A stretch of DNA of 64,000 bases from the IMG/VR virus record IMGVR_UViG_3300021964_000013; one strand, given 5' to 3'. The notes beneath the pieces were generated by a model. That model saw only the letters and a list, made by a program, of their open reading frames with translations. It had not been told where the DNA came from and did no database searches. This document shows positions 3,258-53,796 of this stretch, piece by piece; position 1 is the first letter of the stretch, and every line of letters starts with the position of its first letter. The translations under genes and the position numbers were made by a program. This stretch comes from a virus.

Positions 3258-3286
3258 TTGACAAATATTAAAAAATTACGTATATT
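3258..3286 (+). promoter_or_regulatory. TTGAC-N18-TATATT promoter
   Basis: Directly after the terminator and before ORF 3306. Confidence 0.7.
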
Positions 3287-3305: not shown

Positions 3306-3509
3306 ATGTTAAGTTTTCTTAGAGACGAGTGGATAAAGAACCCAAAGTATTCAAAATGGAGTGGCAGGAGATGTACCTATCATAAATGTGAATGTGATAA
3401 ACCTAAATTGGTCGAATTGTGGGACCAAGACAGTTGTATTAGGGGAAGGATAGATACGGTGGTATGTACCAAATGTGATAGAGTAAGTACGTTTAAAATA
3501 ATAAGATAA
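3306..3509 (+). CDS. Small Cys-rich (Zn-ribbon-like) protein
   Basis: CxC and CxxC motifs. Confidence 0.5.
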   Translation: MLSFLRDEWIKNPKYSKWSGRRCTYHKCECDKPKLVELWDQDSCIRGRIDTVVCTKCDRVSTFKIIR

Positions 3510-4000
3510 TGGGAACAAACTATTACAGAATCCCGTCCGCGGACGAGGTAAAGAAGAAAAGAGACATCTTAGTTGTTCAGGTTGAAACTATGGAGTTAAA
3601 CCCGAGTGACGTTGAAGGTGGGTTTAGATTTATCAGTCCCAATAAAGATTGGGAGTGGTTCAGTCCGTGGGATATGTTCATGAAAGATATGAACGTCCAC
3701 TTAGGTAAACGGAGTATGGGGTGGAAGTTCTGTTGGAATTTTCATGATAACAAGTACTACTCAAATAAAGAAGAACTTATTGAGTTCATCAAGTCAGGTA
3801 GAGTTGTTGATGAATATGGGGAGGAAATGTTAGTTGATGAATTCTTAGAGATGTCGTTTAATTGGGGAGAACCCGATGGATTGGTTGTGGATGAGGAATA
3901 TTACAAGAATAACGAAAGGTTATCATACTTTAATGATCCTAAATATTACGATAGAATAATTGATGGACTAAGAGTCTCATCATCAACCGAATTTACTTGA
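3509..4000 (+). CDS. Phage hypothetical protein
   Basis: 'MGTNYY...HLGKRSMGWKF...DEYG' looks like a widespread phage family. Confidence 0.65.
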   Translation: MGTNYYRIPSADEVKKKRDILVVQVETMELNPSDVEGGFRFISPNKDWEWFSPWDMFMKDMNVHLGKRSMGWKFCWNFHDNKYYSNKEELIEFIKSGRVVDEYGEEMLVDEFLEMSFNWGEPDGLVVDEEYYKNNERLSYFNDPKYYDRIIDGLRVSSSTEFT

Positions 4001-4665
4001 TTATGATAACACTATTTGAAAATTACGATCAAATGTCGGAGTACACCGCATCTTTAGTTGCGGAGGAAGTAACGAACAACCCTAACCTACGTTTAGGTTT
4101 ACCCACAGGATCAACACCGATTGGGATGTATAAAAATCTTATACAATTTGGTTTAGATTGGTCTAATGTAGAAACATATAACTTGGATGAGTATGAAGGG
4201 ATTAGTCATAGTCACCCCGAATCATATCACATGTACATGAATAAGAACCTATTCTTACATGTGAACTTAAAGAAGGAGAATATCCACTTTCCTGATGATC
4301 AATATGATAAAACCATATCGGGGTTTGGAGGATTGGACTTAACAATATTGGGTATAGGTCACAATGGTCACATTGCATTTAATGAACCCGGTTCTTCAGT
4401 AACCTCGAGAACAAGAAAAGTCAAACTCACTGAAGAGACAATAAATACCAACAGTAGGTTCTTTGATTCAATTAATGAAGTACCTAAGAAAGCATTCACT
4501 ATGGGAATGAAAACCATCAGAGAATCAAAGAAGATCATTTTAATTGCCAATGGTCAAGATAAGTGGGATATACTCAATGAATGTTTTAACGGTGAACTAA
4601 ATAAGGACAGACCTGCGAGTATATTACAGACACACCCAAACATCCAAGTATTCTATGCCGGTTAA
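3997..4665 (+). CDS. nagB: Glucosamine-6-phosphate deaminase
   Basis: LGLPTGSTP, NLDEY and LGIGHNGHIAFNEPG motifs. Confidence 0.95.
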   Translation: MIMITLFENYDQMSEYTASLVAEEVTNNPNLRLGLPTGSTPIGMYKNLIQFGLDWSNVETYNLDEYEGISHSHPESYHMYMNKNLFLHVNLKKENIHFPDDQYDKTISGFGGLDLTILGIGHNGHIAFNEPGSSVTSRTRKVKLTEETINTNSRFFDSINEVPKKAFTMGMKTIRESKKIILIANGQDKWDILNECFNGELNKDRPASILQTHPNIQVFYAG

Positions 4666-5170
4666 TAAATTAATGGTTGTTGCACACCCCGACGATGAAA
4701 CCTTATTCGGTGGGGGTGAACTACTAAAACACCAAGGAGAGTACAAGGTGGTTTGTTTAGATTACGGTAATCATTTGGTTAGACACAAAGAATTTATTTG
4801 TGCAATGGAAGAATTGGGAGTAACTAAATGGGAACATTGGGATGGTGAACCCTACAAATCCTCAACCGCATATAATGAGTCTATCTTAATACCAAGAATA
4901 GAAAGAGTCTTAAACGAGAAGAATTGGGAAAGGGTTGTCACACACAATCAAGGTGGTGAGTACGGACACTATAGACATATTGGAACCCACAATGTTATGA
5001 GTCGTTTATGTCCCGATAAGTTATGGGTTTTTGATACGTGTTCAGACAAACCCCTTGGTGAAGAGATAAAACGTATGAAGGGTCACGTTCTTAAAACATG
5101 TTACCCATCACAAGAACAGGTCTTAAGGTGGTTTAATTGGGGTTGTGAGAGGATAAAGAAATACAACTAA
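4655..5170 (+). CDS. PIG-L/LmbE family N-acetylglucosaminyl deacetylase
   Basis: AHPDDE and GEYGHxxH metal-binding motifs. Confidence 0.85.
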   Translation: MPVNKLMVVAHPDDETLFGGGELLKHQGEYKVVCLDYGNHLVRHKEFICAMEELGVTKWEHWDGEPYKSSTAYNESILIPRIERVLNEKNWERVVTHNQGGEYGHYRHIGTHNVMSRLCPDKLWVFDTCSDKPLGEEIKRMKGHVLKTCYPSQEQVLRWFNWGCERIKKYN

Positions 5171-5195: not shown

Positions 5196-5471
5196 ATGGG
5201 TATAGATTTTTTAAAAATCATTGAAGCATTTAAGATCAAAATAAGTCCAAGTGAGAGTCAGAAAGAACTCGCACAGAAGAGATTGGATATTTGTTCTACG
5301 TGTGAATTTAGAAGAGGCGACATAGACTCCAATTTAACTTCATGTGGGAAATGTGGGTGTTTCATATATGGTAAAATATTTACTAATGAGTATGATGCGT
5401 GCCCCGAGGGTAAATGGTCAGAAATAGATAAACCCTATTTTAAAATTAAAGAAACAAAAACATTAATATGA
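5196..5471 (+). CDS. Cys-rich small protein (DUF6171-like)
   Basis: RLxICxxC...CxxCGC...CPxGKW pattern. Confidence 0.6.
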   Translation: MGIDFLKIIEAFKIKISPSESQKELAQKRLDICSTCEFRRGDIDSNLTSCGKCGCFIYGKIFTNEYDACPEGKWSEIDKPYFKIKETKTLI

Positions 5472-7072
5472 AGGCAGTCTTATTAGGTAACGACTTTATA
5501 AAGGACACTGACGGTACCTTTAAAATGTTAGAGACAAATACAAATCTTGCATTACCATTAAAACCAATTGCAAGTTATATAAATAAGGATGTATTAGATC
5601 AGTTCTTATTAGATAACGATATAACTGACATCGATCTAATTATACCTTCGGTAGGTATTGCCTCTTCCATTGACTATGATAACTCAGAATTATCTCATTC
5701 CACATTCCACTCCTACATAATTCAAAATTATGGTGAAACTTACAATGTTAGGACATGGACAACGAAGGGTGATAACATACCAACCGTGGAAGACGGACCG
5801 AACAAACTAATAATTAGAATTTCTTATGATACTAATGCGTTAGTTGACGATACATACTGTAGAGATAATTTTAATTTTCTAAAGTTAATGTACGATTCGA
5901 ATTCCAATTCCATACCCTCAACCTATTTTAATGATGGAGGTGATTTAACAATTGATGGTATTGGTACCTCTTTTAGGGATAACGGTAATTACCCTAACCT
6001 AATAATAAAAAAGAGATATCCAACAACAGACTACTTAGAATATCCCAAAGTTTTAAAAGTCACCACACCACAAGAACTTATCGATATAAAAAATTCATTA
6101 TCCTCCGATGAATTACTACAAGAATATATTGTAAATACCAATGATTTGTTGGAAGGTAAAACAAAAACATATAGACATTTATCTTTAGTTTATGGTTCTG
6201 ATTTATCTGTCTTAGATTTGTTTGAACCTTATGTTCATACAAACAAAGTTGCTCTTTCAGAAACTATTGATTATGTGGGTAATGAAATCCAAGTTTGGGA
6301 AAGACCTAAACTATTGCAGAAAATAGGAAATTATGAATACAATAATAGTTTACACGGCGATTCAAATGACACGGTAATATTAAGTGATGGTACGACCACC
6401 ACTTTAGGATCTCTTAGTGTTGGTGATGAAGTGAAGTCTTTGGATATATACAGTCTTCCCGATGAGGAAATGTCCTATAATAGTTGGAGTGGTGTAGAAA
6501 GTGACGTATTTAATAACACTATACCTACAACTTCTTCTGTAATTGGCAAGATTTCAAAACCATTAGGTTTATTCGTAAATGTTTTAGGTTTTGATAATGG
6601 TTTAACTATTTCGAATGTAAAAAAGACGATCATCCTTACAAAAACATCAGAAGGAAATATAAAGTTTACAACATTTGGTAGACTAAATGTGGGATCCCAA
6701 GTCGTTTTCGGGAGTCTGAGTGATGACTCTTTATCCACCGCAACCGTGACCTCAATTAACTATGAATTTAAATATTTGGTCGCTAACAGTGTTGACGTTG
6801 AGGATAAAGATGTCTATTTAGTTTTAGATGATCAGACTAACCCCATGTATTATACAATACACCATAATGCTAAGGGGATTCCATCAGAGAATTGTGCGTG
6901 TTGGATGAAAGAAAATGAATGGGATGATTGTATATGTGAACAACCCTGTATTTTTGACCCGGGGGAATGTGAATTTAGTCCATTTTTTATCGATTGTTGC
7001 CAAAGTGCTCCGAATTGTAATGGGATGTATACTAATTCCTTCGCAGCGAATCCTTGTGGTGAAGCAAAATAA
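5468..7072 (+). CDS. Circularly permuted ATP-grasp + Hint domain + C-terminal 10-Cys peptide
   Basis: ATP-grasp motifs GxDF...G..KMLETNT, IIKK and LLQEYI. Hint motifs 'TVILSDG...LSVGDEVKS' and terminal 'HHN' (Asn467). Confidence 0.65.
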   Translation: MKAVLLGNDFIKDTDGTFKMLETNTNLALPLKPIASYINKDVLDQFLLDNDITDIDLIIPSVGIASSIDYDNSELSHSTFHSYIIQNYGETYNVRTWTTKGDNIPTVEDGPNKLIIRISYDTNALVDDTYCRDNFNFLKLMYDSNSNSIPSTYFNDGGDLTIDGIGTSFRDNGNYPNLIIKKRYPTTDYLEYPKVLKVTTPQELIDIKNSLSSDELLQEYIVNTNDLLEGKTKTYRHLSLVYGSDLSVLDLFEPYVHTNKVALSETIDYVGNEIQVWERPKLLQKIGNYEYNNSLHGDSNDTVILSDGTTTTLGSLSVGDEVKSLDIYSLPDEEMSYNSWSGVESDVFNNTIPTTSSVIGKISKPLGLFVNVLGFDNGLTISNVKKTIILTKTSEGNIKFTTFGRLNVGSQVVFGSLSDDSLSTATVTSINYEFKYLVANSVDVEDKDVYLVLDDQTNPMYYTIHHNAKGIPSENCACWMKENEWDDCICEQPCIFDPGECEFSPFFIDCCQSAPNCNGMYTNSFAANPCGEAK

Positions 7073-7092: not shown

Positions 7093-7239
7093 ATGTCAAA
7101 CAATAATCAAAATACAACTTATAATACTTTAAGAGAAATAACATCTCTTGTTAGTAAGGTGACTGATACAAATGACACCTCATCAATTAAAAGTTTGAGT
7201 AGTCAATTTGCACAAAACATAATCAACAAACACTCATAA
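7093..7239 (+). CDS. Small Ser/Thr/Asn-rich protein (48 aa; not in ORF track)
   Basis: MSNNNQNTTYNTLREITSLVSKVTDTNDTSSIKSLSSQFAQNIINKHS fills the gap between the neighbouring genes. Confidence 0.6.
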   Translation: MSNNNQNTTYNTLREITSLVSKVTDTNDTSSIKSLSSQFAQNIINKHS

Positions 7240-7240
7240 A

Positions 7241-7867
7241 GTGAGATTATGTATCTTAACACAACCGAGGACTTCATCTACGAATTTATCTTTTCTTCTC
7301 GGTCGTTTGTCAGGATATGAAGTTTACAATGAACCATTTCATGGTCATCACGGTATTAAAAAATACCTAACAGAGCCCTTTACAAAAGATGATAACATCA
7401 TTCTAAAGGAAATGCCATTCTTCCACCAACCATTCGGTGTGGAGGGTAGTGACCAATTCTTTGAATGGTCTCAACAGAACTTCGACAAGGTAATATATCT
7501 TCTACGTAGAGATACTCAAAAACAGAGTGAAAGTTTCTGTTATAGATTAATCCTCTCCAATGAAGACCCAAATACCAAATGGCACGACCAAAAGGAGTAC
7601 GATATGAGTATCGTTCCCCTAAAAAAAATCCAATACGAGAAGGAACGTATGGACCAAAGGAATGAAATGTTCATAAATAACTCATCCATTCATTCCAACC
7701 CTTTATTCTACTATGAAGACCTAATCATTAATGAAGGTAATAACGAGAATATGATAAAATTAATTAATTACGTTGGTTTATCATTCGACAAGAACATCGT
7801 TAGAACCTACTACGGCATCAATAAAAAGTGTAGAGTAAACAGGAAAAAAACAAACACTTTGATTTAA
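7241..7867 (+). CDS. Sulfotransferase-like protein (Stf0-type)
   Basis: PRTSST 5'-PSB loop, NEPF, 'LLRRD..Q..S' 3'-PB motif, YYEDL. Confidence 0.7.
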   Translation: MRLCILTQPRTSSTNLSFLLGRLSGYEVYNEPFHGHHGIKKYLTEPFTKDDNIILKEMPFFHQPFGVEGSDQFFEWSQQNFDKVIYLLRRDTQKQSESFCYRLILSNEDPNTKWHDQKEYDMSIVPLKKIQYEKERMDQRNEMFINNSSIHSNPLFYYEDLIINEGNNENMIKLINYVGLSFDKNIVRTYYGINKKCRVNRKKTNTLI

Positions 7868-8157: not shown

Positions 8158-8356
8158 TTCTTACGAGAAGGCAATGAAAGTCATTGATAGTTGTGAGAAC
8201 GACATTCAAATGAAAGGTGCGATAACTTATTGTCACCTATTTAAGGATCAATTCATTAGATTAGGGGGTGATGAAACACTCATTAATGTATACCACAGTA
8301 ACTTAATAAAACATATTAACTATAAGATAAATGAGAGTTATAGGTACGTCAATTAA
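8141..8356 (+). CDS. Hypothetical protein
   Basis: ORF track; start moved to the ATG overlapping the upstream gene. Confidence 0.5.
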   Translation: MMDLYNSYEKAMKVIDSCENDIQMKGAITYCHLFKDQFIRLGGDETLINVYHSNLIKHINYKINESYRYVN

Positions 8357-8873
8357 AGATTGTTACGTCCTTCAGTGGGACAAGTTTAATGACCGGAGAG
8401 GTTACTTCCAAGTACCCTTTAACCAAGATATTTTTAATGAAGTTACGGATTTGGATTTCAATATAGTCCAAGAGAATGAATCGTACTCCAAAAAGAATGT
8501 TATAAGAGGATTACATTTCCAAAAACCACCTTACGAACAAGCCAAATTAGTTAGATGTACTTACGGTGAGGTAACCGATGTTATCGTAGATATAAGAAAA
8601 GAGTCTCCAACCTATGGTAGAGTAGTCACTGTTAAATTGAATGGTGGGGATTGTAAATCAGTATTTGTACCTCGGGGTTGTGCACACGGATTCTCAACCC
8701 AAACAAAGGCAATATTCAATTATAAGGTCGATAACGTTTATAATAAAGAGAGTGAAGGAGGTATTATCTATAATGACCCTAATCTAAACATCGATTGGGG
8801 TGTAAATAAGAAACCTAAAATATCAGAAAAGGATTTGGAACTACCCTTTTTCAAAGACTTAGATATTTATTAA
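8331..8873 (+). CDS. rmlC: dTDP-4-dehydrorhamnose 3,5-epimerase
   Basis: DxRGYF, QENES, IRGLHFQ, QAKLVRC, DIRKESPTYG and AHGF motifs. Confidence 0.95.
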   Translation: MRVIGTSIKDCYVLQWDKFNDRRGYFQVPFNQDIFNEVTDLDFNIVQENESYSKKNVIRGLHFQKPPYEQAKLVRCTYGEVTDVIVDIRKESPTYGRVVTVKLNGGDCKSVFVPRGCAHGFSTQTKAIFNYKVDNVYNKESEGGIIYNDPNLNIDWGVNKKPKISEKDLELPFFKDLDIY

Positions 8874-9161: not shown

Positions 9162-9169
9162 TTCAATCG

Positions 9170-9191
9170 CCCCACGATCGTGGGGTTTTTT
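9170..9191 (+). terminator. Rho-independent terminator
   Basis: CCCCACG-AT-CGTGGGG followed by a T-tract. Confidence 0.7.
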
Positions 9192-39804: not shown

Positions 39805-42800
39805 TTATCTTTTTCTAGATCTTGATCTACTTCTAGATCTCGATCTTGTTCTTGATTTAGTTTCTTTTGTATCAACACCTATCTGGTAATCAGGCCAGCC
39901 TAGGAACATTAATATCTGCTCATATGTTTTAAACTCACCTTCAAGATCTACAGAGTTAAGTATATTTTCATACTTCTGCATAAGCCTGTCTAGTGGCACA
40001 TTCGATGCTACCGATGTACCAACAGCCATAGCTTTTAAGAAGTTTGTGTCACTAAGCATTTCTAAAGTACCCAAGTTTTCTTTAGATTTTTGTAAGTAAT
40101 AACCAACACTCTTAATCTTGTTCAGCTTCGAACCAATAGATGGCGCTATATTAGCTGCTTCAAACGCTAGCATTTCAAAGTCAGGGTTAGGTCTGCCAGA
40201 TCTCTCTACAAACTCAACGCCTACATTTTTAATTACAGACATAATGTGACCTCTAATACCAGCACCGCGTAAAAATGAATCAAGCATACCATTAACTAGC
40301 TTGAACTCATCAGATTTAACCAATCTCTCTTCGTCATCGTCAGAAAAACCAATAAGTGTGCCTAATAAAGCGCTCTGTAAAGACACGAACAAAGCGTGTT
40401 GCGCCATACCGTAGTAAGCTATTCTAGACATTGAAACAGCAGCACTACCTCTTTTGTTCTTTAAGTTACTAAGCTCTTTCTTGATTATCCTGTCATACTG
40501 GGACTGAGTGTTAGCAAACGTCAATAGAAGTCTACCACCAAGGCTAGCTTGCTGAGCGCTAATTCTGTCAGGTCTAGACGACTGTTGTGATTCTTCTGTT
40601 TTATTTCTAAAATCAATAAACGCTCTTGCTTCAGCTTCTTCTTGTGTTAAACCTTGCTTTAAATACTCGTTAACATAGTTTCTGTAGTAAGGAGCACCAC
40701 CCATTACAATAGCTAAGCTATCCGCGATTTGTGTTGGCATAAAGCCTTTTGATAGTAACCAACCTACGGCCGCTTTAAACTTGTTTGTAGCATTTTTAGT
40801 TGCATCAACGAGTTCAGCTTCATTGATGTCGATTTTAAGACCCTCACGACGCTCTCTCATGTAGTTGGAGTTGACCAATGTCATTACATCAGACCAGAAC
40901 TGCTTTTGATTAGCGTACGCTGTGCCTGCTTTCAGCACGTTGTTAGGACCAGCGGCTTCAATATAGTTTGTAAACGAGATTAACTGCAATACAGCTGATC
41001 TAGTGTTAGCAAACATAACAACACCAACAGAACCATTTAACCAGTTCATGATGTTATTAGTAAACTGTGAGTCACCTGTTTCTAACCTGTTTCTACCCGT
41101 TTTCATTCTGGTGATTATGTTATCAAGAGACTTGATATAATCCTCACCAAATGCTGCTCTCATTTTGTTTTTATTCTTCTCGTTAAAGATAAAATCAACG
41201 TTTCTATTCCACTCTTCTAAGTATTTCTTTCTACTGTTCTTTTTCAAAGAGTCGATGATGTCACCTATAATACCACCAGAGTTCCAGTTTTTACCAGGTT
41301 CTACGTGACCGTGAAGATCAGTAATTTTCATTATCTCAATAGCGGCTTCTCTAGCCATACCATCTTTAACGACAAATGCTTGAGCTTGCTTTATTTCGTT
41401 TTCAGATATACCAGATATGTCATAACCTTTTCTACTCCATATGTATATTCTGATAGCGTTTTCAACACTCATACCAGGGAAAGCATCAGCTTTTAACTGC
41501 TTAAACAAGGGCTTAAACGTCTTCTTGATATCACGGTACTGCCTGATCATTCTAACTCTTTCAGCTGAGTAGTTGTTCACACCTTCATAGTAAGGCTCTA
41601 ACAAGTACTCTTCAAAGAAAGATATATGCTTTTGTGATTGATCACCTTTACCAACGAGATAGTTTTCTATAAGACCTCTGTAATCGTCGTGTGACGGTGG
41701 TACAAAGAATACATTTTTATTCTTATCTCTACCCAGTTGTTTCGATGCTACCTCAGAGAATTCTGTTTTAGCGTTTAAACCAGTAACATCTTCAAGTATA
41801 CTGTTAAACTCAGCATCTAGATCAGCAGCAAGCCTATTCAACCTTTCTTCCTCTTCTGCTTTAGCTATCTTTTCGGGATCTTGGCTGATAGTCCCTGTCT
41901 CTTCTATTTCCTCCTTTAGATTCTCTAAGAATTTCTTTACCTCTTGTTCCTTGTCTTTTAGAGATTTTTTATCTTGGTTAGACATGTCATCTTTAGAAAA
42001 ATTACCAAGATTATCTATTAAGTTCTGTATGTTTCTACCAACACTTCTGTTGTAGTCTAAAGAAACTAAAGCAGAGTGATCTATAGTTACTGCGTCTCCG
42101 TTTTCTTTGTAAATCTCAATGTTATTAGAACCTTGTTTACCTACCGGTACTCTAGATATTCTAGACAAGAAGGTAGGCTCTACGTTGTTTCTAAAATGAG
42201 GCATAACAACACCTTGTTTAGCCAAGAGTTTTTTAGCGTACGCTTTAGAGACTTGTACGGTTACGAAGTCATCTAGTATATCTATAGACGAGTTGTCTTT
42301 TCTAGGGTTTGTTACAACGTTGGCTAAATAACCAGATAAATACTTAGTTGGTATAGAATACATCAACGACTTAGGTGTTGATTTTTCAAGTACCATGTTT
42401 ACCCCAAACCTAGAAGCTTTACCTATAATAGGGTTTTTAGCTTCAAATACTGTATCGAATATAAAAGCAACTTCTTCTCTAGTTAAATTACCATTAGCAT
42501 AAAGTGCTTTTACTTTATAGAAGCTGTCTTTTAGTTTGTTTTTTAAAGTCAAAGGATCTAAGCTCACACTTTCGTTAAGAACACTTAACACGTCGTTATC
42601 AAAAACCTTTTCAAGAACGTTGACTTTAGCTTCGTTAGATATAGTGTTTTCACTGACGTTTAGCAAGCTCTTATGTCCTTCGTTTAAAACAGTGTTTTGA
42701 GCTATGTTAAACAAGTTATCAGCAAGAGAATCAGTGAACTCTGCTTCAACAGCTTTATGTGTTCTTAATCTAACAGTATCGATGTTTCTAGCGATATTAG

Positions 42801-45800
42801 CAAAGTCTAAAGCTAATTGTCTAGAAAGAACAACAGCGCTAGCCTCGTTCAACCATGGGTATTCTTTAGCAAAAGTATTTACAAGGTTGTTTGTCAATGC
42901 TATTCTAAGCTGACCCAATTGCTTATCACGCATCATGTTAGGCATGAGCTTGTAAGGAGCAATGCCATCTTTAAATGCTTTAAGTAAAGGATCTGGGTTT
43001 TGCATGATTAGCTCAGCCATACGTAAACCACCCATTCCAGCGTCTAAAGCGTTAGCACTAAACTTCATTAATGGGTCACGTTCAATTAAGTATGCTACCC
43101 TACCTATAACTTGGTTTTCTTCAACCACATCAGCGTTTTTCTCAATCATGCGCTCGTACATGTCGATGACTCTACCCTCAACAGGGTTGCCTTCTAAATC
43201 GTAGAACTGCTGGTTAGGGTTTTGCATAACTTCAAGAGTAGCATCGAGACCAAGGTCTATAGACATAGCTTCAGCTAAAACTCTTTTATGCTCATGTGGC
43301 ATGTTTCTACTTCTACCGACACGTGTTGGGTCTAAGTAGTTTAACCACTCTTCTTTTGTTGGGTAACGTCTTTGTACTTTGTTTACACCTGAGTAAGCGT
43401 CTCTAATGCCTAACATCCTAGACTCTTCAGCTGTGTAGCGTATTACATTGCCCTTAGCGTCTTTTTGGAACTCATATAAAACTCCGTTTAATGCAGGGAA
43501 TTTTCTAAGTGTGTTAAGGCTTAATTCTTCTTGAATCCAACCTTGGTTCTTAGAAGCCCACTCAATAAACTTAGCTGATCGTGTTGGGAACTTTTCAAGC
43601 ATGGTCTTGTATATAAGACCCTTGTATGCTTCAAACAAGTACGACCTAAACAAGCTTGGTTTCCATTTTTTAGTAGACATCAAATCAGGAGACAAGCTCA
43701 GCGTTCTAGTAACGACGCCCCTGATCTTGTTCATCTCTTGTGGTTCTAAACCTAACTTTCTTCTAATTCTACTGAACTCACCTAGTGAAGCTGGTTTATC
43801 AATAGCTTCTTCTATACTTTGCTCGTCACTTACAGATGGACCACCACCAGCGAGATCATCAACGTTAGTATTGAAGGTTTCACCTAGGTATTTGTTTTTT
43901 ATAGAAGCAGCTCTTAAAGCAAAGTACTTGTTGATATAAGCAGCTAATGGCACTCCTTTATCAGGGTTGTAACTCATTACTATACCGACCAATCCCTCTA
44001 CATCCTGTATAGCCGCGTCTTCTATTAAGTCTTTATCGAGTTGCCACCCAGGTAACGTGTCCCAGTTACCACGTATGGCTATTTTACGAAACATAGGTCT
44101 ATACATTTCACCTATTTCGTATACCGCAGCTACACCTTGCTCATCCCATAATCTCTGAACCTCAGCGCTCATTTCTTGCTGAGCTTTAGTAGGGCCTCTT
44201 TTTTTATCTTCAAACTCGTTTGCGGAGTCCATGTCTTCAGCAGCTAGCCAACCCTTAGAGTTTTTATCTACTTGAAGTAAAACACCTTTGCCACCGTACT
44301 CAGCAAACTGTCTCTGTGCTTTAGTTGACTTTCCTTTTACAATAGAATTATTGTAGTCCCTGACAAAGTTAAACACATCTTTACCGGTGTTAAACTCAAT
44401 GTTCTTGAGACCCAAGTCCTGCATTATTCTTCTTATAAAGTCTCCTATTTTCTCAAAGAAACTCTGGTCGTAAGTAACTCTTCCAGTTAACAAAGAATCA
44501 GATAGTACAGTGATAAACTCTTCTAAGTTTCTAGGATCAAAAGTTACGTCAGACATAGAAGCTAGCTTGTTAAACTGTTCTATGTTTTTGTTTGCTTTTT
44601 TAAATAACTCTTCTGCAGTGTACTTTTTGCCTAGTAAAGTATATGTTTGGTAAACTCTCATCCTAGACCTCCAGTTGTCTAGGTCTTTTATTTTTCCAGA
44701 ATCTTCTAGTTCTAGCAAATAATTGTTTAAAGCACCTACTGTTTGTTTTAAAGCGTCTGTATTGATCTTACTTTTACCATCTTTTAGTGCCGTAAAAGTA
44801 TTGTGCAAAACAGCATGTAAGACCTCATGGCTACCAGTTGTAACGTTTCCAGAAGCTATAGAGCCTTGCGCGTTGACAATGATTTTACCTTTAGTTGTAA
44901 ATACACCTGGTTTTCTTTTTAACTCGCCTTCAACGTAGTCTAGTTCTTCTTTAGTCGGGTTGTTTATACCTCTATCTTTTAAAACCTCAACAGCGTATTG
45001 TCTAGTGTTTTCAGCAACAACAACATTATCACCAACAATTTCTAGATCAGCAAAAGCTTTTACCGCGTTGTTCAGGTTAGCATTGAACTCTTCCATAGAG
45101 ACTAGTTCAAAGTTCGCGTCAACAACTTGAGATTTTAAAGTGTTTGATTTTTTAACTAAATCGCTTTTGTTGTGGTTTAAATCGATGTTCTTTATTTCAG
45201 CGGCGTGTTGCTCTTCGGTTATAGAACCCTCTTTCAACTGAGTGTTTAACACATCGATTTGCTGCTTTCTTATAGACTCTAGGTCTTTTACTTTTTTACC
45301 ATCCTCAGAGCTTTGGAAATCAGATAGCTTTTTTTCAGCGTCGTTCTTATTGTACTCAGCATCCATTAACTTCGACTTCTGATCGCTACTCATTGACCTG
45401 TCAAAGTTCTGAGAGCTCATCATGAAATTATCGAGCTGCTGCTTTTTTTCCTCGTATGCTTCTTTTGTTATAACACCGTCTTGAAGGTCCTTGTTTAATC
45501 TAGCAATATTGTGTTGATGAAACTCTCTTAGACCTTTTATATCTAGTTTTCCAGCAGCTACAGCATAAGCATTTGAAGCTTCAGTTATCGTAGATGACGT
45601 TACATTACCGCTAAATGGTAATAACGAACCCATGATAAACCCAGCTCCACCACCTTGTATGTAGTTTTCTCTAATATATTCACCTACTGTTACGTCACTA
45701 GCAGCTTGTTGAAACACCTCAGTCATCATCTCGTCAAAACCACCTCTTACAGATGTTAATCCGTTTTTAGACTGTTGCTTTAACCAGTGTTTAAATTGTC

Positions 45801-47364
45801 CTTTGACTAGAGACGCAGCGTTTTGCCTAGCGCCTTGTTTCAGAACGCTCATACCTAAAGACTTACCTAAGACAGATGATGCACCAACGTACTCAGCAGC
45901 ACCACTAACGAAACCAACGCCCATAGCACTATTAAATATTTCGTTATTCATATCCTCTTCAACAACCCTCATTAATTGGTCAATGCTAGGCTGGAGTGTA
46001 TTGTATTTTACTTTAGCTTGTTTTTGTACTTGTCTTAAGTAGTTATCACCGGCCATTTGAGCTGCTGGTAATGTACCGAAGGTTAATATTGCAGACAACA
46101 TCTGTGGAAGCTGTTCAGAGACAATTGTTTTAAGCGTCTGTAAGGACTTACCAGACTCTAATACATCTCTTACATCAGCGTGGCCAAAATGAGACTCTAG
46201 AGCTTGTCTTTCGAATATTAGTTCTAGGTCTTGCTTTTGGTTTTCGCGGCCATCTTCAATGATTTTTTTAGCTTGCTCTTGAGCTTCACCCCAAGTGCCT
46301 TTTTTAGTATAGCCTGATGCTGCCGGGTGGAAACCATCTTGTTTTGGCACCATGAAAGCACCTTTGTTGTTAAAGTAACCTACAGTGTTGTCATCCCAGC
46401 CTTGCTCTTCGGCTAACTTCTGGTTTACCTGGTACTGTCTTTCTACTTGTAAGTAATCAGCTGTGCCTAAACCACCGGCCTTGACAGAAGTACCCATACC
46501 ATGTATGCTTTTATACACACCTCTAAAAAGTGTTGGCATGTTTTGGTAACCTAGCTTCATAGCGCCTCTGATATGCGCTTTATTTACTAAATCAATAATA
46601 GTATTGTCAACTACATAGTTGTCGTAATCAGCTTTATGGCTATCACCAATAAGCTCTTGGTATGTAGATATACGTTTCTGTATGTCTGGATCAGCAAAAA
46701 TCGTCTGATTTATAAGCTTAGAGTATTCTCTTTGCGCTTTTTCAAGCTCTTCTTGAGAAATGTCCTCTATCTCCATGTCTTTAAACGGAGCCATTATGCT
46801 TGAAAGACCCTCTTGAAGATCAGTCTGCTTGTTATCTAACGTTTGAGATATCATGCCTTGTAACTTCTCATCCTTCGTTACAACAGCATTAAGCGTCTCG
46901 TTGTTAAAGTCGTCTATTATAACTTCGTCACCGTAGGGCAAAACAGGACCATAAGGTGTGTTTTTTAATTTACGAGAAGCTTTTCTACCCTTAAACTCTT
47001 CTTGAGTTCGCCTCTTCATATCTTGATAATCAGAGTCGTCGGGTATGAGTATAGGTTTTCTAGAAACACCCATATACTTTTCTTCTTCTTGCGGTACTTT
47101 GCCTAAAGTAGAAGGGTCGAATATAGGGTTACCAAATTCATCAGTCTCTTGTGATTCCGAAGAACCAGCTTCCGAAGACAAATCCGTAGCGGGCTTTTGA
47201 TTTGGGCTTTCTGTGGTCTCGCCCTCTACCACGCCCTGTTGCTTTCCCTCGTCTAAAGGTTTTAAACCAGCGTTAGCAACGTAGTCTTCAATAGATAAAC
47301 CGCTTTCATCAGCGGCTTTTTGAACCTCTTCAAGAGAATACTGTTGTCCTTCGTATTCAAACAT
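39805..47364 (-). CDS. Giant internal virion/ejection polyprotein (2519 aa)
   Basis: Position after the tail and ejection genes; HEVLH zincin motif; sigma region-2-like segment; C-terminal RS repeat. Confidence 0.75.
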   Translation of the reverse strand: MFEYEGQQYSLEEVQKAADESGLSIEDYVANAGLKPLDEGKQQGVVEGETTESPNQKPATDLSSEAGSSESQETDEFGNPIFDPSTLGKVPQEEEKYMGVSRKPILIPDDSDYQDMKRRTQEEFKGRKASRKLKNTPYGPVLPYGDEVIIDDFNNETLNAVVTKDEKLQGMISQTLDNKQTDLQEGLSSIMAPFKDMEIEDISQEELEKAQREYSKLINQTIFADPDIQKRISTYQELIGDSHKADYDNYVVDNTIIDLVNKAHIRGAMKLGYQNMPTLFRGVYKSIHGMGTSVKAGGLGTADYLQVERQYQVNQKLAEEQGWDDNTVGYFNNKGAFMVPKQDGFHPAASGYTKKGTWGEAQEQAKKIIEDGRENQKQDLELIFERQALESHFGHADVRDVLESGKSLQTLKTIVSEQLPQMLSAILTFGTLPAAQMAGDNYLRQVQKQAKVKYNTLQPSIDQLMRVVEEDMNNEIFNSAMGVGFVSGAAEYVGASSVLGKSLGMSVLKQGARQNAASLVKGQFKHWLKQQSKNGLTSVRGGFDEMMTEVFQQAASDVTVGEYIRENYIQGGGAGFIMGSLLPFSGNVTSSTITEASNAYAVAAGKLDIKGLREFHQHNIARLNKDLQDGVITKEAYEEKKQQLDNFMMSSQNFDRSMSSDQKSKLMDAEYNKNDAEKKLSDFQSSEDGKKVKDLESIRKQQIDVLNTQLKEGSITEEQHAAEIKNIDLNHNKSDLVKKSNTLKSQVVDANFELVSMEEFNANLNNAVKAFADLEIVGDNVVVAENTRQYAVEVLKDRGINNPTKEELDYVEGELKRKPGVFTTKGKIIVNAQGSIASGNVTTGSHEVLHAVLHNTFTALKDGKSKINTDALKQTVGALNNYLLELEDSGKIKDLDNWRSRMRVYQTYTLLGKKYTAEELFKKANKNIEQFNKLASMSDVTFDPRNLEEFITVLSDSLLTGRVTYDQSFFEKIGDFIRRIMQDLGLKNIEFNTGKDVFNFVRDYNNSIVKGKSTKAQRQFAEYGGKGVLLQVDKNSKGWLAAEDMDSANEFEDKKRGPTKAQQEMSAEVQRLWDEQGVAAVYEIGEMYRPMFRKIAIRGNWDTLPGWQLDKDLIEDAAIQDVEGLVGIVMSYNPDKGVPLAAYINKYFALRAASIKNKYLGETFNTNVDDLAGGGPSVSDEQSIEEAIDKPASLGEFSRIRRKLGLEPQEMNKIRGVVTRTLSLSPDLMSTKKWKPSLFRSYLFEAYKGLIYKTMLEKFPTRSAKFIEWASKNQGWIQEELSLNTLRKFPALNGVLYEFQKDAKGNVIRYTAEESRMLGIRDAYSGVNKVQRRYPTKEEWLNYLDPTRVGRSRNMPHEHKRVLAEAMSIDLGLDATLEVMQNPNQQFYDLEGNPVEGRVIDMYERMIEKNADVVEENQVIGRVAYLIERDPLMKFSANALDAGMGGLRMAELIMQNPDPLLKAFKDGIAPYKLMPNMMRDKQLGQLRIALTNNLVNTFAKEYPWLNEASAVVLSRQLALDFANIARNIDTVRLRTHKAVEAEFTDSLADNLFNIAQNTVLNEGHKSLLNVSENTISNEAKVNVLEKVFDNDVLSVLNESVSLDPLTLKNKLKDSFYKVKALYANGNLTREEVAFIFDTVFEAKNPIIGKASRFGVNMVLEKSTPKSLMYSIPTKYLSGYLANVVTNPRKDNSSIDILDDFVTVQVSKAYAKKLLAKQGVVMPHFRNNVEPTFLSRISRVPVGKQGSNNIEIYKENGDAVTIDHSALVSLDYNRSVGRNIQNLIDNLGNFSKDDMSNQDKKSLKDKEQEVKKFLENLKEEIEETGTISQDPEKIAKAEEEERLNRLAADLDAEFNSILEDVTGLNAKTEFSEVASKQLGRDKNKNVFFVPPSHDDYRGLIENYLVGKGDQSQKHISFFEEYLLEPYYEGVNNYSAERVRMIRQYRDIKKTFKPLFKQLKADAFPGMSVENAIRIYIWSRKGYDISGISENEIKQAQAFVVKDGMAREAAIEIMKITDLHGHVEPGKNWNSGGIIGDIIDSLKKNSRKKYLEEWNRNVDFIFNEKNKNKMRAAFGEDYIKSLDNIITRMKTGRNRLETGDSQFTNNIMNWLNGSVGVVMFANTRSAVLQLISFTNYIEAAGPNNVLKAGTAYANQKQFWSDVMTLVNSNYMRERREGLKIDINEAELVDATKNATNKFKAAVGWLLSKGFMPTQIADSLAIVMGGAPYYRNYVNEYLKQGLTQEEAEARAFIDFRNKTEESQQSSRPDRISAQQASLGGRLLLTFANTQSQYDRIIKKELSNLKNKRGSAAVSMSRIAYYGMAQHALFVSLQSALLGTLIGFSDDDEERLVKSDEFKLVNGMLDSFLRGAGIRGHIMSVIKNVGVEFVERSGRPNPDFEMLAFEAANIAPSIGSKLNKIKSVGYYLQKSKENLGTLEMLSDTNFLKAMAVGTSVASNVPLDRLMQKYENILNSVDLEGEFKTYEQILMFLGWPDYQIGVDTKETKSRTRSRSRSRSRSRKR

Positions 47365-49515: not shown

Positions 49516-52500
49516 TTAGCTACTGACAAATATTTCAGAGTTAACTGCGAATAGTTCTTTATTAGTTCCCGTTGTGTTAGTCATTTTAACCGATGCGTAG
49601 TAGCCAACTAATCCAGAAGTGTTGATCTGACTGTTTTTAGCAAAGAACACGAAATCACCATCTTCTATGCTAGTACCACCATTATCATAGTCTATACCTT
49701 CCGTGTTGTTCACGTCTACATAGTACTGTCCACCTGTAGCTCCAGTATCAGCACACGTACCTATCTTGTAAATATTACCATTTGATTTCTGGTAAAAAAC
49801 AATATCATCAGCCGCTTCTTGTAAAGATACATTTATCTCGTTATTAAATATTAGCCTCATTGTAGGTGTAACTGTACCTACTATATCTAAGGTATCTATA
49901 CCTTGAACTGAAAACTCACTTGTATCTAAAGAACCAGACTGGGTGTTGTTGTCCCAAGCATCTTGTCTACCTCTAATATAATTATAATATATTCCCTCTT
50001 TGTTTTTCCAAGTAACTACTTCACCGTCTTGCTGATCAGTATCTACAGTAGCCGTCCAGCCAGAATCACCCTCGTAAGAAAGCGTCTTAAAGTTCTTGAT
50101 TCTAGAAGCCTCATCGTTATGTAGTAGAGTTACTGATGTGTCGTACTGAATACCGTAGTAGTTAGCTCTAGTATTGTTAGTGTGAGCGTATATATTACCG
50201 TTTTTAAAAGTATAGTACACTGAGTTAAGCGAAACACCTGTCTCAGGTACAAAGCTTAATCTAGTCGACCAACCATCTACGCTTTCTTTAAAAGCTAATG
50301 TCTCGCCGTTAACAGTTACATTGTAAGACGACATGTCTTCGTTAAAAGAACCGTGTATCGCGCCAGAGTGTGCTGTTAGAGCGTCTGTAATAAAGTCTGA
50401 CATACCTTTAGATGCTACATCAGTGATACCGTCTCTAGACAGTCTTATAACAGCTCTTCTAGATTTGTCTACGAAGTATGCTCTAAAACCAAAGCTTACA
50501 AAAGACTCTGGATTCTTAGATATACCATACTCACCAACATAAGGAGTCGATTGACCCAATACCCTATTTGTAGATACAAGGTTAGCATTACCATCCGCAT
50601 TGTAAAGCGCATCTTTATTAGCGAGTACTCTAAATACTTTATCCTCACAAAGAACAATAAGATCAGTGTCTCTAGCGTGAAGTTTTTGTATTGTACCATA
50701 TATTGGGTTGAGGTCTTTTGTTATTTTCTCCGCGGTGTTAAACTGGTTAAGGTTGTTCACTCCAGATGTGGAGTTGAATATACCACTGTAAATCATACCG
50801 TGGCCTCTTCTCTCTTGAGAGTAAACCTCTTCAATGGTACTAGAAGCTTTAACACCTTTACCCATTGTCTTGGCGTTGAAGTCGTCTCTAATTCTATTAG
50901 ATTCAACACCGTTGCCAAAAGAGTACACATTGAAGTAATCTAACACTTGCTCTGTTTGCAACTGAGCGATTGGTATTGCTTCTGTAGCTTCGAAGAATAT
51001 ATCTAGATCAATAGCCTCGTTTGGTTCAACTTCAAAAACAGTAGGGTTAGGAGAACTAAGTGTAATAGTGTTCTCATCAAAAACTATAGGTAATAACCTT
51101 TTTCTTTTAGATATCCTTACAGCATCAGCTGTAAAGTCCTCATCAGTAAAAGGTGTAGTCATTTTTATGTTCCAGTAGTAACCTGTTTCATCGTCAGTGT
51201 CTCCAGAAGACAATGGTTGCCTGTCGTAACTACCTTTTGTAACAGTGTCTACAATATATAGTGAGCTCCAAGAGTTATCAGTGCTATTTTGGAACTGAAT
51301 CACATCACCACTGCTAATAGCCGCATCGAATGCATTACCGTTAGTGCCAAAGTCTATATTATTGCTGTCGTATGGTGCAAAGTAGAAACCAAACAAGTCA
51401 GAACCAATTGTTGGCTGACCATGTGAGTCGATGCTTGGTTGAGCGTTAGCGTGTTCTTCCCAAGCAAACATATCTAGAGTAGCAGGTGGCGTGTCGGTAG
51501 CGTCTGGATCATCAGACAGTGTGTTCTGTATATAAGGAACTCTCTTTAAACCGTCTTGCTCATAATCACTAGGGTCATTTGTAAAGTTGTATATAACACT
51601 TTCTTCAAATAGAACATCTCTGTTGATCTTAACAAAGAATCTTCCCTGGTATTCTTTTCTAGCTTCTTTTTCTTTTTTGTATACCTCTACAGTGAAATTA
51701 TCAGAGCTAGAAAGACTTTGTATAAAACCAACATCAGTTAGTTTTTCTTTTGTTGTTATCTCGTAGCAATCATGTGAATCACCAGTATAACCACCTCTTT
51801 CTATCTCGTAAAACTGGCTAACATTGGTACCTCTTCTAAATCTTATGTAAGAATCGTAATCAAAGGACTCAAAGAACTCTGGATTTTCAGCTGATGTTGG
51901 TCCTTCAAACTTGAACGTCTTTAAGTTGTTAGCGACTGGAGTATCAGAACCTTTAACCACTTCTGAGCCCGTGTTGTAGACTCTTTTTATAGAAACAGCA
52001 TCTGGTACTTCATTCTGTATATCTAAGATCTTGTATCTAGAAGGCGATATAACAGGCTCATCTGAGTTGTGTTTTTTCTTAAGTGTAAGGAAGTCTCCCT
52101 CCTGCACTTTATTACGCTCAGCACTTGGCATAGACAACCAAACAGTACCGTCTGAATCATCAGCATAGTACCTATCAAGTACGATGTTGTAGTATTCATT
52201 AGATATGTCCTTAACGTAGTATTTAAAATGCGTTGCCCAAGAAGGAGCGTCTTGACCAGACTCAGCTTTTATTCTATTAACCTTGCTTGATTTGTCTATG
52301 TCTACTTTTATAGTAGAGTAGTCATTCGTAAAAACAGGTGTTTCTCTACCGTTAGTATCTAAATAAACAATACCTATTTGGTAGTTTCTCAAAGATTTTA
52401 CACTTGACTCAGGTGTTTTAACACTTGTTATAGAGTTAGACTGTAAGCTAACTGTAATATCAGCTTCATCAGTGATGTTGTAACCCTGAACGTAGTTACC

Positions 52501-53796
52501 ATACACAAGCCTATTACCTATAACCTCTTGAGATTTAGCTTTTAACGGAACGTTGTCATATGCTCTTAGTAACTGGCTAGATTCCACTAGGTTACTAATC
52601 AGCTCTGATGTTATAGAGTAATTTGTTCTTGTAGTAGGTATAGACTCAACCTTGTACACGTTGGGTGATGAAGAGTCTTTATATAAAATATCTATATACT
52701 CTACGTCGGCTGGTGGTGTTTCAAACCCGCTTATGGTCAATCGCCTTAGGTTGTTTATCATGCCGGTATTATACGCGTTCATAGATATATACCTAAAATC
52801 ACCGGGTACAAAAACAGCATTAGTCCAAGGTGAAAAACCAGAGACTTCGCCATCAACATATCTCCATCTGTAAGCAAATCTAGGAAAAGACAATTCAAAC
52901 ATTGGTCTTTCTTCTTCAAGAATACACTTCCATGTGTACTCTATAGATTTTATATCAGACGATATAGACTGTATAGTACCAGTAACAAACCTTAGTAAAG
53001 CACCAGTTATAGAAACAACTTCTATTCTAACCTGGTACTCATCTTCGTAGTTGTTATCGTTTATCTCACTAGCTGTCAGTACGATGATATCACCAGCGTT
53101 CCAGTTAGGAGAATCACTTACAGTAAAAGATATAGAGCTACCTACTTCTCTAGGCACTTTGCTGCCGCCATAAAGCTCTGTAAAGTCTTGTTGAGTGGTT
53201 ACGTAGTTCAAGCCAGAACCAACACCAGATCTAGTAGTTGAAGAAGCCACATAGTGTGGCCTTTCGTTTGGTTTTTTCTTTATAACAGTAATATCTGAAG
53301 CTATAAAGTCTCTACCATATACAGTCGTTTGGTCTTGACCAGTTTGGTTTGTACCGGACTTAAATCTTGATATTAGTATTTTTCTAGGCTCATTAAGATC
53401 ATCTGTCCACATGAGCATACCATCGAACACGTTTACGCCAGTGATTAAGTTGCCGATGCTGAAGTTTAATACACTGTTGTAATCCACTATAACAAAAGAT
53501 ACAACCTCGTTTGACTCATTGTACTCTAAAACAAAGTCACCTTCGTCTGCGGTTACAAACCAATATATCTTATTATTCTGTGTGTCTTTTACATTACCAA
53601 TGCAGGTAGCGTTTGTAAAGTTAAACGAAGACTTAGCTGTGTTGCCAAGTACACTTTCTATTGCTCCTACATCAGAACCCTCAGAGTTACTAACCTGTAC
53701 GTTCAGTGCATCTCTGTACTGACCGTTAGGCACAAGCCTCTCATCAAGGTCTTTATTCATTTTACCTGATGTGAAAACGCGCTTTAATTCTGGCAT
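49516..53796 (-). CDS. Tail nozzle/stabilisation protein
   Basis: N-terminal 'GKMNKDLDERL.PNGQYRDALN', beta-rich sequence, 'YGISKNPES'. Confidence 0.75.
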   Translation of the reverse strand: MPELKRVFTSGKMNKDLDERLVPNGQYRDALNVQVSNSEGSDVGAIESVLGNTAKSSFNFTNATCIGNVKDTQNNKIYWFVTADEGDFVLEYNESNEVVSFVIVDYNSVLNFSIGNLITGVNVFDGMLMWTDDLNEPRKILISRFKSGTNQTGQDQTTVYGRDFIASDITVIKKKPNERPHYVASSTTRSGVGSGLNYVTTQQDFTELYGGSKVPREVGSSISFTVSDSPNWNAGDIIVLTASEINDNNYEDEYQVRIEVVSITGALLRFVTGTIQSISSDIKSIEYTWKCILEEERPMFELSFPRFAYRWRYVDGEVSGFSPWTNAVFVPGDFRYISMNAYNTGMINNLRRLTISGFETPPADVEYIDILYKDSSSPNVYKVESIPTTRTNYSITSELISNLVESSQLLRAYDNVPLKAKSQEVIGNRLVYGNYVQGYNITDEADITVSLQSNSITSVKTPESSVKSLRNYQIGIVYLDTNGRETPVFTNDYSTIKVDIDKSSKVNRIKAESGQDAPSWATHFKYYVKDISNEYYNIVLDRYYADDSDGTVWLSMPSAERNKVQEGDFLTLKKKHNSDEPVISPSRYKILDIQNEVPDAVSIKRVYNTGSEVVKGSDTPVANNLKTFKFEGPTSAENPEFFESFDYDSYIRFRRGTNVSQFYEIERGGYTGDSHDCYEITTKEKLTDVGFIQSLSSSDNFTVEVYKKEKEARKEYQGRFFVKINRDVLFEESVIYNFTNDPSDYEQDGLKRVPYIQNTLSDDPDATDTPPATLDMFAWEEHANAQPSIDSHGQPTIGSDLFGFYFAPYDSNNIDFGTNGNAFDAAISSGDVIQFQNSTDNSWSSLYIVDTVTKGSYDRQPLSSGDTDDETGYYWNIKMTTPFTDEDFTADAVRISKRKRLLPIVFDENTITLSSPNPTVFEVEPNEAIDLDIFFEATEAIPIAQLQTEQVLDYFNVYSFGNGVESNRIRDDFNAKTMGKGVKASSTIEEVYSQERRGHGMIYSGIFNSTSGVNNLNQFNTAEKITKDLNPIYGTIQKLHARDTDLIVLCEDKVFRVLANKDALYNADGNANLVSTNRVLGQSTPYVGEYGISKNPESFVSFGFRAYFVDKSRRAVIRLSRDGITDVASKGMSDFITDALTAHSGAIHGSFNEDMSSYNVTVNGETLAFKESVDGWSTRLSFVPETGVSLNSVYYTFKNGNIYAHTNNTRANYYGIQYDTSVTLLHNDEASRIKNFKTLSYEGDSGWTATVDTDQQDGEVVTWKNKEGIYYNYIRGRQDAWDNNTQSGSLDTSEFSVQGIDTLDIVGTVTPTMRLIFNNEINVSLQEAADDIVFYQKSNGNIYKIGTCADTGATGGQYYVDVNNTEGIDYDNGGTSIEDGDFVFFAKNSQINTSGLVGYYASVKMTNTTGTNKELFAVNSEIFVSS

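Follow-up and report, generated by a model that had tools for sequence, protein, structure and literature searches.

A phage protein joining a predicted permuted ATP-grasp ligase, a Hint domain and a cysteine-rich tail

Results and Discussion

Why should a phage combine, in a single polypeptide, what look like a peptide ligase, a self-cleaving domain and a short cysteine-rich segment? The question is raised by a gene in a 64,000-nucleotide stretch of viral DNA (IMG/VR virus record IMGVR_UViG_3300021964_000013, here called the window). The DNA comes from an uncultured marine phage. The gene is an open reading frame (ORF) of 534 amino acids at 5468..7072 on the + strand, consisting of a predicted ATP-grasp ligase domain, a predicted Hint domain and a Cys-rich tail. 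This composition had been proposed in an earlier note made from the sequence alone, and the ATP-grasp, Hint and tail motifs on which the note relied were found in the ORF at the positions it had given. Taking sequence comparisons and structure predictions together, the gene, a microprotein gene downstream of it and a gene for a zinc-ribbon-like protein may constitute a phage-specific three-gene module, in which a two-subunit ligase would carry a Hint domain that frees a disulfide-rich peptide. We regard this reading as evenly poised between right and wrong. That the layout itself is not a product of chance follows from the high confidence with which both folds are predicted, from their match to known structures and from the recurrence of the three-part layout in hundreds of related phage proteins.

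Distribution of the family

The whole protein has no match in Pfam (E up to 1) or PHROGs, no relative was detected by tblastn among 50,697 deposited phage genomes, and the viral structures in BFVD yielded weak, generic ATP-grasp matches only. Relatives were found by a word-seeded search (82 proteins) and by an exhaustive HMMER search (246 clusters at 50% identity). IMG/VR holds 324 loci of the family, on contigs of up to 333 kb. A profile search of approximately 186,000 species genomes detected three family contigs only, all of them contigs of metagenome-assembled genomes. By these numbers the family is essentially viral; it is distributed over several phage lineages. The literature searched, which covered ATP-grasp, Hint, phage and Cys-rich topics as well as ribosomally synthesized and post-translationally modified peptides (RiPPs), contained no description of an ATP-grasp/Hint fusion, and we found no paper or family library with the layout of ligase, Hint and Cys-rich peptide accompanied by the microprotein and the zinc-ribbon protein.

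The ligase domain

Residues 1-290 (5468..6337, + strand) are assigned to a circularly permuted ATP-grasp ligase domain on the basis of a structure model, Foldseek matches and conservation. The motifs stand in permuted order: G7-N-D9-F, G16 and L21-E22-T-N24 come first and are followed by I179-I-K181-K and L216-L-Q-E219-Y-I. The AlphaFold2 model, built from a 118-sequence alignment, has a predicted local distance difference test score (pLDDT) of 93.5 for this domain. The best Foldseek matches in the PDB (probability 1.00, E 2e-5 to 1e-3) comprise YjfC/YgiC, glutathione and homoglutathione synthetases, glutathionylspermidine and trypanothione synthetases, two CP_ATPgrasp structural-genomics entries and Cp1B. 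Structural alignment with VIA-align gave Z scores of 9.6-8.0 with root mean square deviations of 4.1-5.1 Å over 203-238 residues, the best one (Z 9.6) having a deviation of 4.2 Å over 215 residues; for the set of permuted ligases compared below, Z was 9.6-7.4 over 205-238 residues. The permuted enzymes aligned from residue 1 of the model, whereas the non-permuted TTL, TTLL6 and LysX aligned only from residues 48-53; since the alignment starts at residue 1 with the permuted enzymes alone, the shared permutation is confirmed. In the ESM Atlas, the neighbours outside the family were CP_ATPgrasp, glutathione synthetase and YgiC clusters.

The residues expected to bind magnesium (D9, E22 and N24) are invariant in the 118 sequences, with the Glu-x-Asn element located 13 residues after the Asp. 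This spacing is that of biotin carboxylase and Ddl. The segment 9-33 pairs with residues 274-297 in biotin carboxylase and with residues 256-280 in Ddl, segments that contain the metal-binding E...E-x-N motif and lie near the C-terminal end of the ATP-grasp domains of those enzymes. R117, D127 and R236 are also invariant. In the sequence alignment K181, the candidate ATP-binding Lys, is kept in at least 90% of the sequences, and Q-E-Y (218-220), the candidate adenine-binding hinge, is the majority form. Thus the permuted ATP-grasp domain proposed in the earlier note is borne out by the fold model, the structural matches and the conserved Mg and ATP motifs. By sequence comparison the domain is a separate family inside the ATP-grasp superfamily, and we consider it likely that it is an active ligase.

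To our knowledge, all characterised enzymes of the permuted branch activate the terminal carboxylate of a peptide. Because the nearest relatives activate the C-terminal carboxylate of a peptide, the phage ligase probably does likewise. YgiC and YjfC are described as peptide-spermidine ligases in PMC12568646, which cites Pederick et al. 2023. The window ligase has the same fold and permutation as E. coli YgiC/YjfC (7uk8, 7uk6), the synthetase part of GspS (2io7), eukaryotic glutathione synthetase (2hgs, 1m0w) and fungal Cp1B (9cjn), and shares with them the Mg-binding strand motif at the start of the domain and the Asp/Glu/Asn metal triad. It differs from the YgiC/GspS/glutathione synthetase group in its low identity (8-11%) and its length (290 residues as opposed to 370-480), and, unlike these enzymes, it is fused to a Hint domain and is predicted to have a separate microprotein over the back of its sheet.

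The microprotein and the zinc-ribbon partner

Neither of the two constant partner genes had been pointed out in the earlier note. The microprotein, predicted to be a tightly bound subunit of the ligase domain, has 48 amino acids, ends in N-K-H-S and is encoded at 7093..7239 (+ strand). In about 80 of 86 loci the main gene is followed, after 2-39 nucleotides, by a homologous ORF of 25-52 amino acids, which persists beside the tail-less and tandem-Hint forms of the main protein described below. Members of the microprotein family have a conserved amphipathic C-terminal helix and end in K-x-K-H-(L/S/M) or variants of it. The window copy and that of locus L006 have seven nucleotide differences, all synonymous; by this comparison the microprotein is under purifying selection.

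The complex of the full-length main protein, ATP, Mg and the microprotein was predicted in three runs. The interaction prediction score from aligned errors (ipSAE) was 0.87-0.88 in the three runs, as compared with 0.00 for the best control. The pLDDT of the microprotein in the complex was 91-92, and the contacts agreed between the runs. The predicted interface comprises residues 1-47 of the microprotein and residues 6-37, 65-71, 125-148 and 228-284 of the main protein, together with a few residues of the Hint domain. The contact residues 8, 10, 18, 235 and 237 and the catalytic residues D9 and R236 occupy alternating positions, so the helix of the microprotein is expected to lie on the opposite face of the sheet. 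The modelled interface is more in keeping with a structural subunit than with a substrate. A role as a LysW- or Pup-like substrate that offers its C-terminus was considered and rejected, as the interface spans nearly the whole length of the microprotein and is located behind the catalytic sheet.

The other constant partner is a 91-amino-acid zinc-ribbon-like Cys protein (5196..5471, + strand), the stop codon of which shares the sequence ATGA with the start codon of the main ORF. In 64 of 67 unique loci a homologue of about 90 amino acids is encoded on the same strand, no more than 4 kb away; its gene immediately precedes the main gene or else immediately follows that of the microprotein. Its invariant residues are R29, C33, C36, C50, C53, C55, K60, C69, P70 and W74, among them six cysteines, and its C-terminus (K-T/S-L/I-I/L) is conserved. 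The protein matches phrog_13558 (3e-10); a distant DUF6171 match was found for 7 of 29 members (best 3.5e-5), along with weak matches to Rpb12/TFIIB zinc ribbons.

The Hint domain

Residues 296-467 (6353..6868, + strand) are predicted, from the model, Foldseek matches and motifs, to form a Hint domain capable of C-terminal cleavage only. The region ends in H465-H466-N467-A468. In a second model the Hint part had a pLDDT above 90; Foldseek matched it to mini-inteins, the Hedgehog Hint and bacterial intein-like (BIL) domains with E values of 2e-7 to 1e-4 and template modelling (TM) scores by target of 0.65-0.79, and a family profile run against PDB sequences matched the KlbA intein at 5e-6. The Pfam Hint models, including PF07591, do not detect the window Hint; where PF07591 matches homologues, it matches extra, canonical Hints. 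These canonical domains, located farther downstream in some homologues, served as the alignment reference for reading the motifs.

The position of the catalytic Cys1 is occupied by H296 and is variable across homologues, so the N-terminal Cys, Ser or Thr nucleophile of inteins is missing. The block B TxxH is absent from the window Hint, and the block F His is replaced by an invariant Asp (D448). Block G, in contrast to these losses, has been retained: although the mean identity of the domain across the family is about 25%, H466-N467 is invariant in three family alignments, and 182 of 207 homologues have the His-Asn pair. The residue that follows is A468 in the window protein and A, P, K, Y, I, V or others in the family, never a conserved nucleophile. 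With Cys1 and TxxH lost and no conserved nucleophile at +1, splicing and N-terminal cleavage are excluded, and of the Hint reactions only the cyclisation of the C-terminal Asn can still take place. The predicted cyclisation site, assigned from conservation, is His466-Asn467 (6863..6868, + strand), with N467-A468 as the scissile bond, and the sequence evidence makes cleavage at this bond fairly likely. The earlier note had described a Hint domain that ends in His-His-Asn, lacks the Cys1 nucleophile and has Ala after the Asn. The model, Foldseek and profile results agree with the domain assignment, and H296 and A468 with the two residue claims. Structure prediction, which the note had named as one way to check both folds, returned the expected fold for the ligase domain as well as for the Hint.

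The window Hint has the same fold as the Hints of polymorphic toxins (PT-HINT), BIL domains (2lwy, 6y75) and the Hedgehog Hint (1at0), with TM scores by target of 0.71-0.79. As in the PT-HINT and BIL proteins, a terminal His-Asn without a +1 nucleophile precedes a variable C-terminal cargo, and cleavage is expected rather than splicing. It differs from these Hints by the absence of the N-terminal Cys/Ser/Thr and of TxxH, by the block F Asp and by about 26 extra residues. The cargo of the window protein is a small Cys-rich peptide, whereas that of PT-HINT proteins is a toxin enzyme, and the upstream partner is an enzyme instead of a secretion or filament module.

In homologues P0007-P0018 (loci L007-L015) the Hint contains an insert of 150 amino acids of the CBM_4_9 type (PF02018 in some clusters), at the site where inteins carry a homing endonuclease.

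The cysteine-rich tail

The tail (residues 468-534; 6869..7069 plus stop codon, + strand) is an acidic segment of 67 amino acids (7.4 kDa, pI 4.05) ending in C-G-E-A-K. Its ten cysteines (476, 478, 488, 490, 494, 501, 510, 511, 517 and 530) agree in number with the count given before for nucleotides 6869-7072; residues 1-467 hold one Cys, thus the tail carries 10 of the 11 cysteines of the protein. The number of cysteines is 6, 8, 10 or 12 in 134 of the 140 tails that are not longer than 90 residues. Of 182 proteins, 137 have a Lys at one of their three final positions, as compared with a background Lys frequency of 5%. No known toxin family was matched by the tail in Pfam or in the Atlas search.

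The tail is much more variable than the rest of the protein. Identity to homologue P0003 is 91% in the ligase domain, 92% in the Hint domain and 51% in the tail. The ratios of nonsynonymous to synonymous substitution rates (dN/dS) relative to L006, which are rough because dS is near saturation, are 0.06, 0.13 and 0.28, respectively, the last value rising to 0.40 when the tail cysteines are left out. The rate at which the tail evolves exceeds that of the enzyme by a factor of four to six. Hypervariability of the tail among homologues, which the earlier note had suggested looking for, is thus confirmed by both measures.

What follows the His-Asn differs between homologues: the tail is absent, is Cys-rich, is Cys-rich and followed by an S74-type chaperone, or is replaced by one to three canonical Cys1...His-Asn Hints; in some homologues a Cys region is followed by a canonical Cys1 Hint. 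The proteins with an S74-type intramolecular chaperone after the Cys region form a clade of 634-667 amino acids. In this clade the Ser-x4-Lys dyad motif of S74 begins directly after ...C-N-x-x-K, and the match of the clade profile to the released GA-1 chaperone (3gud, E 0.0098) begins at residue 1 of the chaperone. Because the S74 module abuts the conserved Lys, the end of the mature peptide falls at the Lys where the window tail stops. The peptide of the S74 clade would be cut on both sides, and this is the strongest comparative argument for the Cys-rich segment being a discrete product. S74 chaperones are known from the tail spikes and fibres of phages, one example being the GA-1 neck appendage (3gud); the domain occurs in one homologue clade and is absent from the window protein. 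The release of the tail, as proposed in the earlier note, gains comparative support from the near-universal His-Asn, the even Cys numbers, the hypervariable tail and the second self-cleaving module.

An arrangement reminiscent of the homologues with two Hints is that of the BIL-UBL-BIL (BUBL) loci of ciliates (BIL2 structure 6y75), in which a ubiquitin-like domain is located between two BIL Hints. In the same order, some homologues have a C-terminally cleaving Hint before their Cys-rich peptide and a canonical Cys1 Hint after it. In contrast to BUBL, the window protein has no second Hint, its peptide is not ubiquitin-like, and an ATP-grasp domain, which BUBL does without, is present.

Proteins P0208, P0217 and P0202 (locus L086) have two or three canonical Hints in tandem, with linkers of 1-5 residues and no cargo between them.

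Proposed mechanism and its alternatives

In the mechanism that we propose, Asn467 would cyclise, the N467-A468 bond would break, and peptide 468-534 would be freed with a new amino terminus; once outside the reducing cytoplasm, the released peptide would make five disulfides. The ligase would form an amide via an acyl-phosphate, probably from the C-terminal carboxylate of a peptide. The microprotein, encoded 21 nucleotides downstream, would wrap the ligase domain, with its amphipathic helix on the back of the sheet and one strand at the sheet edge, and the zinc-ribbon protein would be the third constant partner. The favoured substrate of the ligase would be the conserved C-x(2-4)-K end of the peptide, joined to its own N-terminus by cyclisation or to another amine. 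The coupling of ligase and tail is suggested by the constant fusion to an amine-exposing Hint and by the conserved terminal Lys, and action of the ligase on the tail is put forward here as a tentative and rather doubtful part of the scheme. Still less likely, in our judgement, is the complete pathway, a leaderless and protease-free route in which the Hint would free the amino end and the ligase with its microprotein would join the carboxyl end at C-x(2-4)-K, giving a head-to-tail cyclic, cyclotide-like product or attachment to a target amine. Phages would then carry a fast-diversifying arsenal of such peptides. Products of neighbouring genes (2-oxoglutarate (2OG) oxygenases, sulfotransferase-like proteins, adenosine 5'-phosphosulfate (APS) kinase and halogenase-like proteins) might decorate the peptides further. 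A virion protein, which the earlier note had named as a possible target of ligation, is unlikely, as the gene belongs to the non-structural block of the + strand, whereas the structural module is encoded far away on the - strand, at 38-64 kb.

Several observations weigh against a two-subunit ligase acting on a Hint-released peptide. About 4% of the homologues stop 5-11 residues after the His-Asn, and about 10% carry only tandem Hints after it; in these tail-less and tandem-Hint proteins the ligase and the Hint are retained, and both partners, the microprotein and the zinc-ribbon protein, still accompany them. Therefore the tail can neither be the only substrate of the ligase nor be needed for the core function. 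No separate Cys-rich gene, the zinc-ribbon gene aside, was found within 5 kb of the tail-less and tandem-Hint loci L086-L088. An Asp stands in place of the block F His, a residue that in inteins assists the cyclisation of the Asn. The tail is modelled weakly (pLDDT 54-67), and a search of the ESM Atlas with the tail only returned no informative neighbour. With respect to the ligase, the Pfam models GSP_synth, GSH_synth_ATP and CP_ATPgrasp_1/2 do not match the protein (E up to 1). An interface on the back of the sheet says nothing about the substrate of the ligase, and the calibration of the ipSAE mark, a value attained by 58 of 80 solved complexes but also by 2 of 110 mismatched pairs, is approximate for our complex, which was predicted from custom alignments and with the ligands included.

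The retention of ligase, microprotein and zinc-ribbon partner in the tail-less and tandem-Hint homologues would be readily accommodated if ligase and tail had separate functions, the Hint freeing a variable effector peptide by the logic of PT-HINT polymorphic toxins, and the ligase with its microprotein modifying another target, be it the zinc-ribbon protein at its C-terminus, some protein of the host, or a small molecule such as a polyamine or an amino sugar. The zinc-ribbon protein, with its conserved C-terminus and its occurrence in almost all loci, would suit such a role; the nearest relatives of the ligase are described as joining peptides to spermidine (PMC12568646), and the products of the neighbouring PIG-L deacetylase and NagB-like genes could expose sugar amines. 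The sugar genes, however, are not kept as neighbours in other loci, and the separation leaves unexplained both the constant fusion of ligase and Hint and the retention of His-Asn in proteins with almost nothing to release. We consider it a possible but somewhat improbable explanation. The losses of Cys1, TxxH and the block F His could alternatively mean that the Hint is a dead scaffold and that the Cys-rich tail, left uncleaved, is a zinc-binding or disulfide-stabilised targeting domain. Such a role would be compatible with synthesis in the reducing cytoplasm and with the CxC, CC and CxCxxPC patterns, which are also known in metal-binding proteins. It is hard to reconcile with His-Asn being the only invariant pair in so divergent a domain, with the presence of a second self-cleaving module flanking the tail in two clades, and with Cys counts such as 6 and 10, which suit disulfide pairs better than Cys4 metal sites; we regard a dead Hint as distinctly unlikely.

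An ATP-grasp enzyme beside a short, variable peptide also resembles the layout of microviridin-type systems, and the ligase might then introduce side-chain ester or amide cross-links into the tail, before or after its release, as in graspetide-like RiPPs. The closest folds are nevertheless those of the glutathione synthetase and GspS type, enzymes that act on alpha-carboxylates, the tails conserve only the cysteines and the terminal Lys with no Thr/Ser/Lys-Asp/Glu pattern, and tail-less forms exist. Cross-linking of this kind appears very improbable.

If the Hint domain cuts and the ligase acts on the end of the peptide, as we propose, then one gene and a microprotein would suffice for the compact production of a disulfide-rich peptide, without a leader peptide, a separate protease or export-coupled processing. 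The module is spread over hundreds of marine phages of several lineages. A tail that is hypervariable around a conserved framework of cysteines bears the mark of an arms race, so the peptides may act on hosts or competitors. The enzyme pair could serve as a tool for peptide ligation or cyclisation. Even on a cautious reading, an ATP-grasp enzyme with a predicted 48-amino-acid partner and a Hint apparently reduced to Asn chemistry are both unusual.

Phage and neighbouring genes

A large terminase, a portal and a virion protein are encoded at 56-64 kb on the - strand, and a primase-helicase is encoded on the + strand of the window. The nearest relatives of the terminase are those of Flavobacterium, Cellulophaga and Tenacibaculum podophages. 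An ORF of 1,426 amino acids (49516-53796, - strand) contains the C-terminal domain of the crAss-virus muzzle protein (PF25729, 7e-10); the neighbouring ORF of 2,519 amino acids (39805-47364, - strand) has no Pfam match. By sequence similarity, the muzzle domain and the terminase relatives place the phage near the crAss-like podophages of Flavobacterium and Cellulophaga.

A sulfotransferase-like protein of 208 amino acids (7241..7867, + strand) is a frequent neighbour with a putative functional link to the module. Its family occurs in 33 of the 67 unique loci, and the family profile matches the NodH sulfotransferase at 0.006. Sulfotransfer_1 and Sulfotransfer_3 were each matched by 2 of 28 members; the window copy has no Pfam match. 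Other neighbours are frequent without being universal: 2OG-Fe(II) oxygenases in 52/67 loci, two sulfotransferase-like families in 43/67 and 33/67, an SGNH-like family and halogenase-like genes, all as raw counts without a background comparison. APS kinase genes were found a few kb from the module in two loci (L005, 5150-5593; L088, 2851-3279). The APS kinase loci also contain genes for sulfotransferase-like, 2OG oxygenase, SET-domain and radical S-adenosylmethionine proteins, a combination that hints at an island of sulfation and hydroxylation functions.

The module is flanked in the window by + strand genes for a NagB/6-phosphogluconolactonase-like protein, a PIG-L family deacetylase and an RmlC-like epimerase (3997-5170 and 8331-8873), all assigned by Pfam; at the other loci examined, these sugar genes were not kept as neighbours. 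A deacetylase that exposes sugar amines beside an amide ligase recalls the mycothiol and bacillithiol pathways. The same + strand block contains, 2 kb upstream, an ORF of 67 amino acids (3306-3509, + strand) with seven cysteines, including CxC and CxxC motifs, which is preceded by a promoter-like site at 3258-3286. A terminator-like hairpin is located at 9169-9186.

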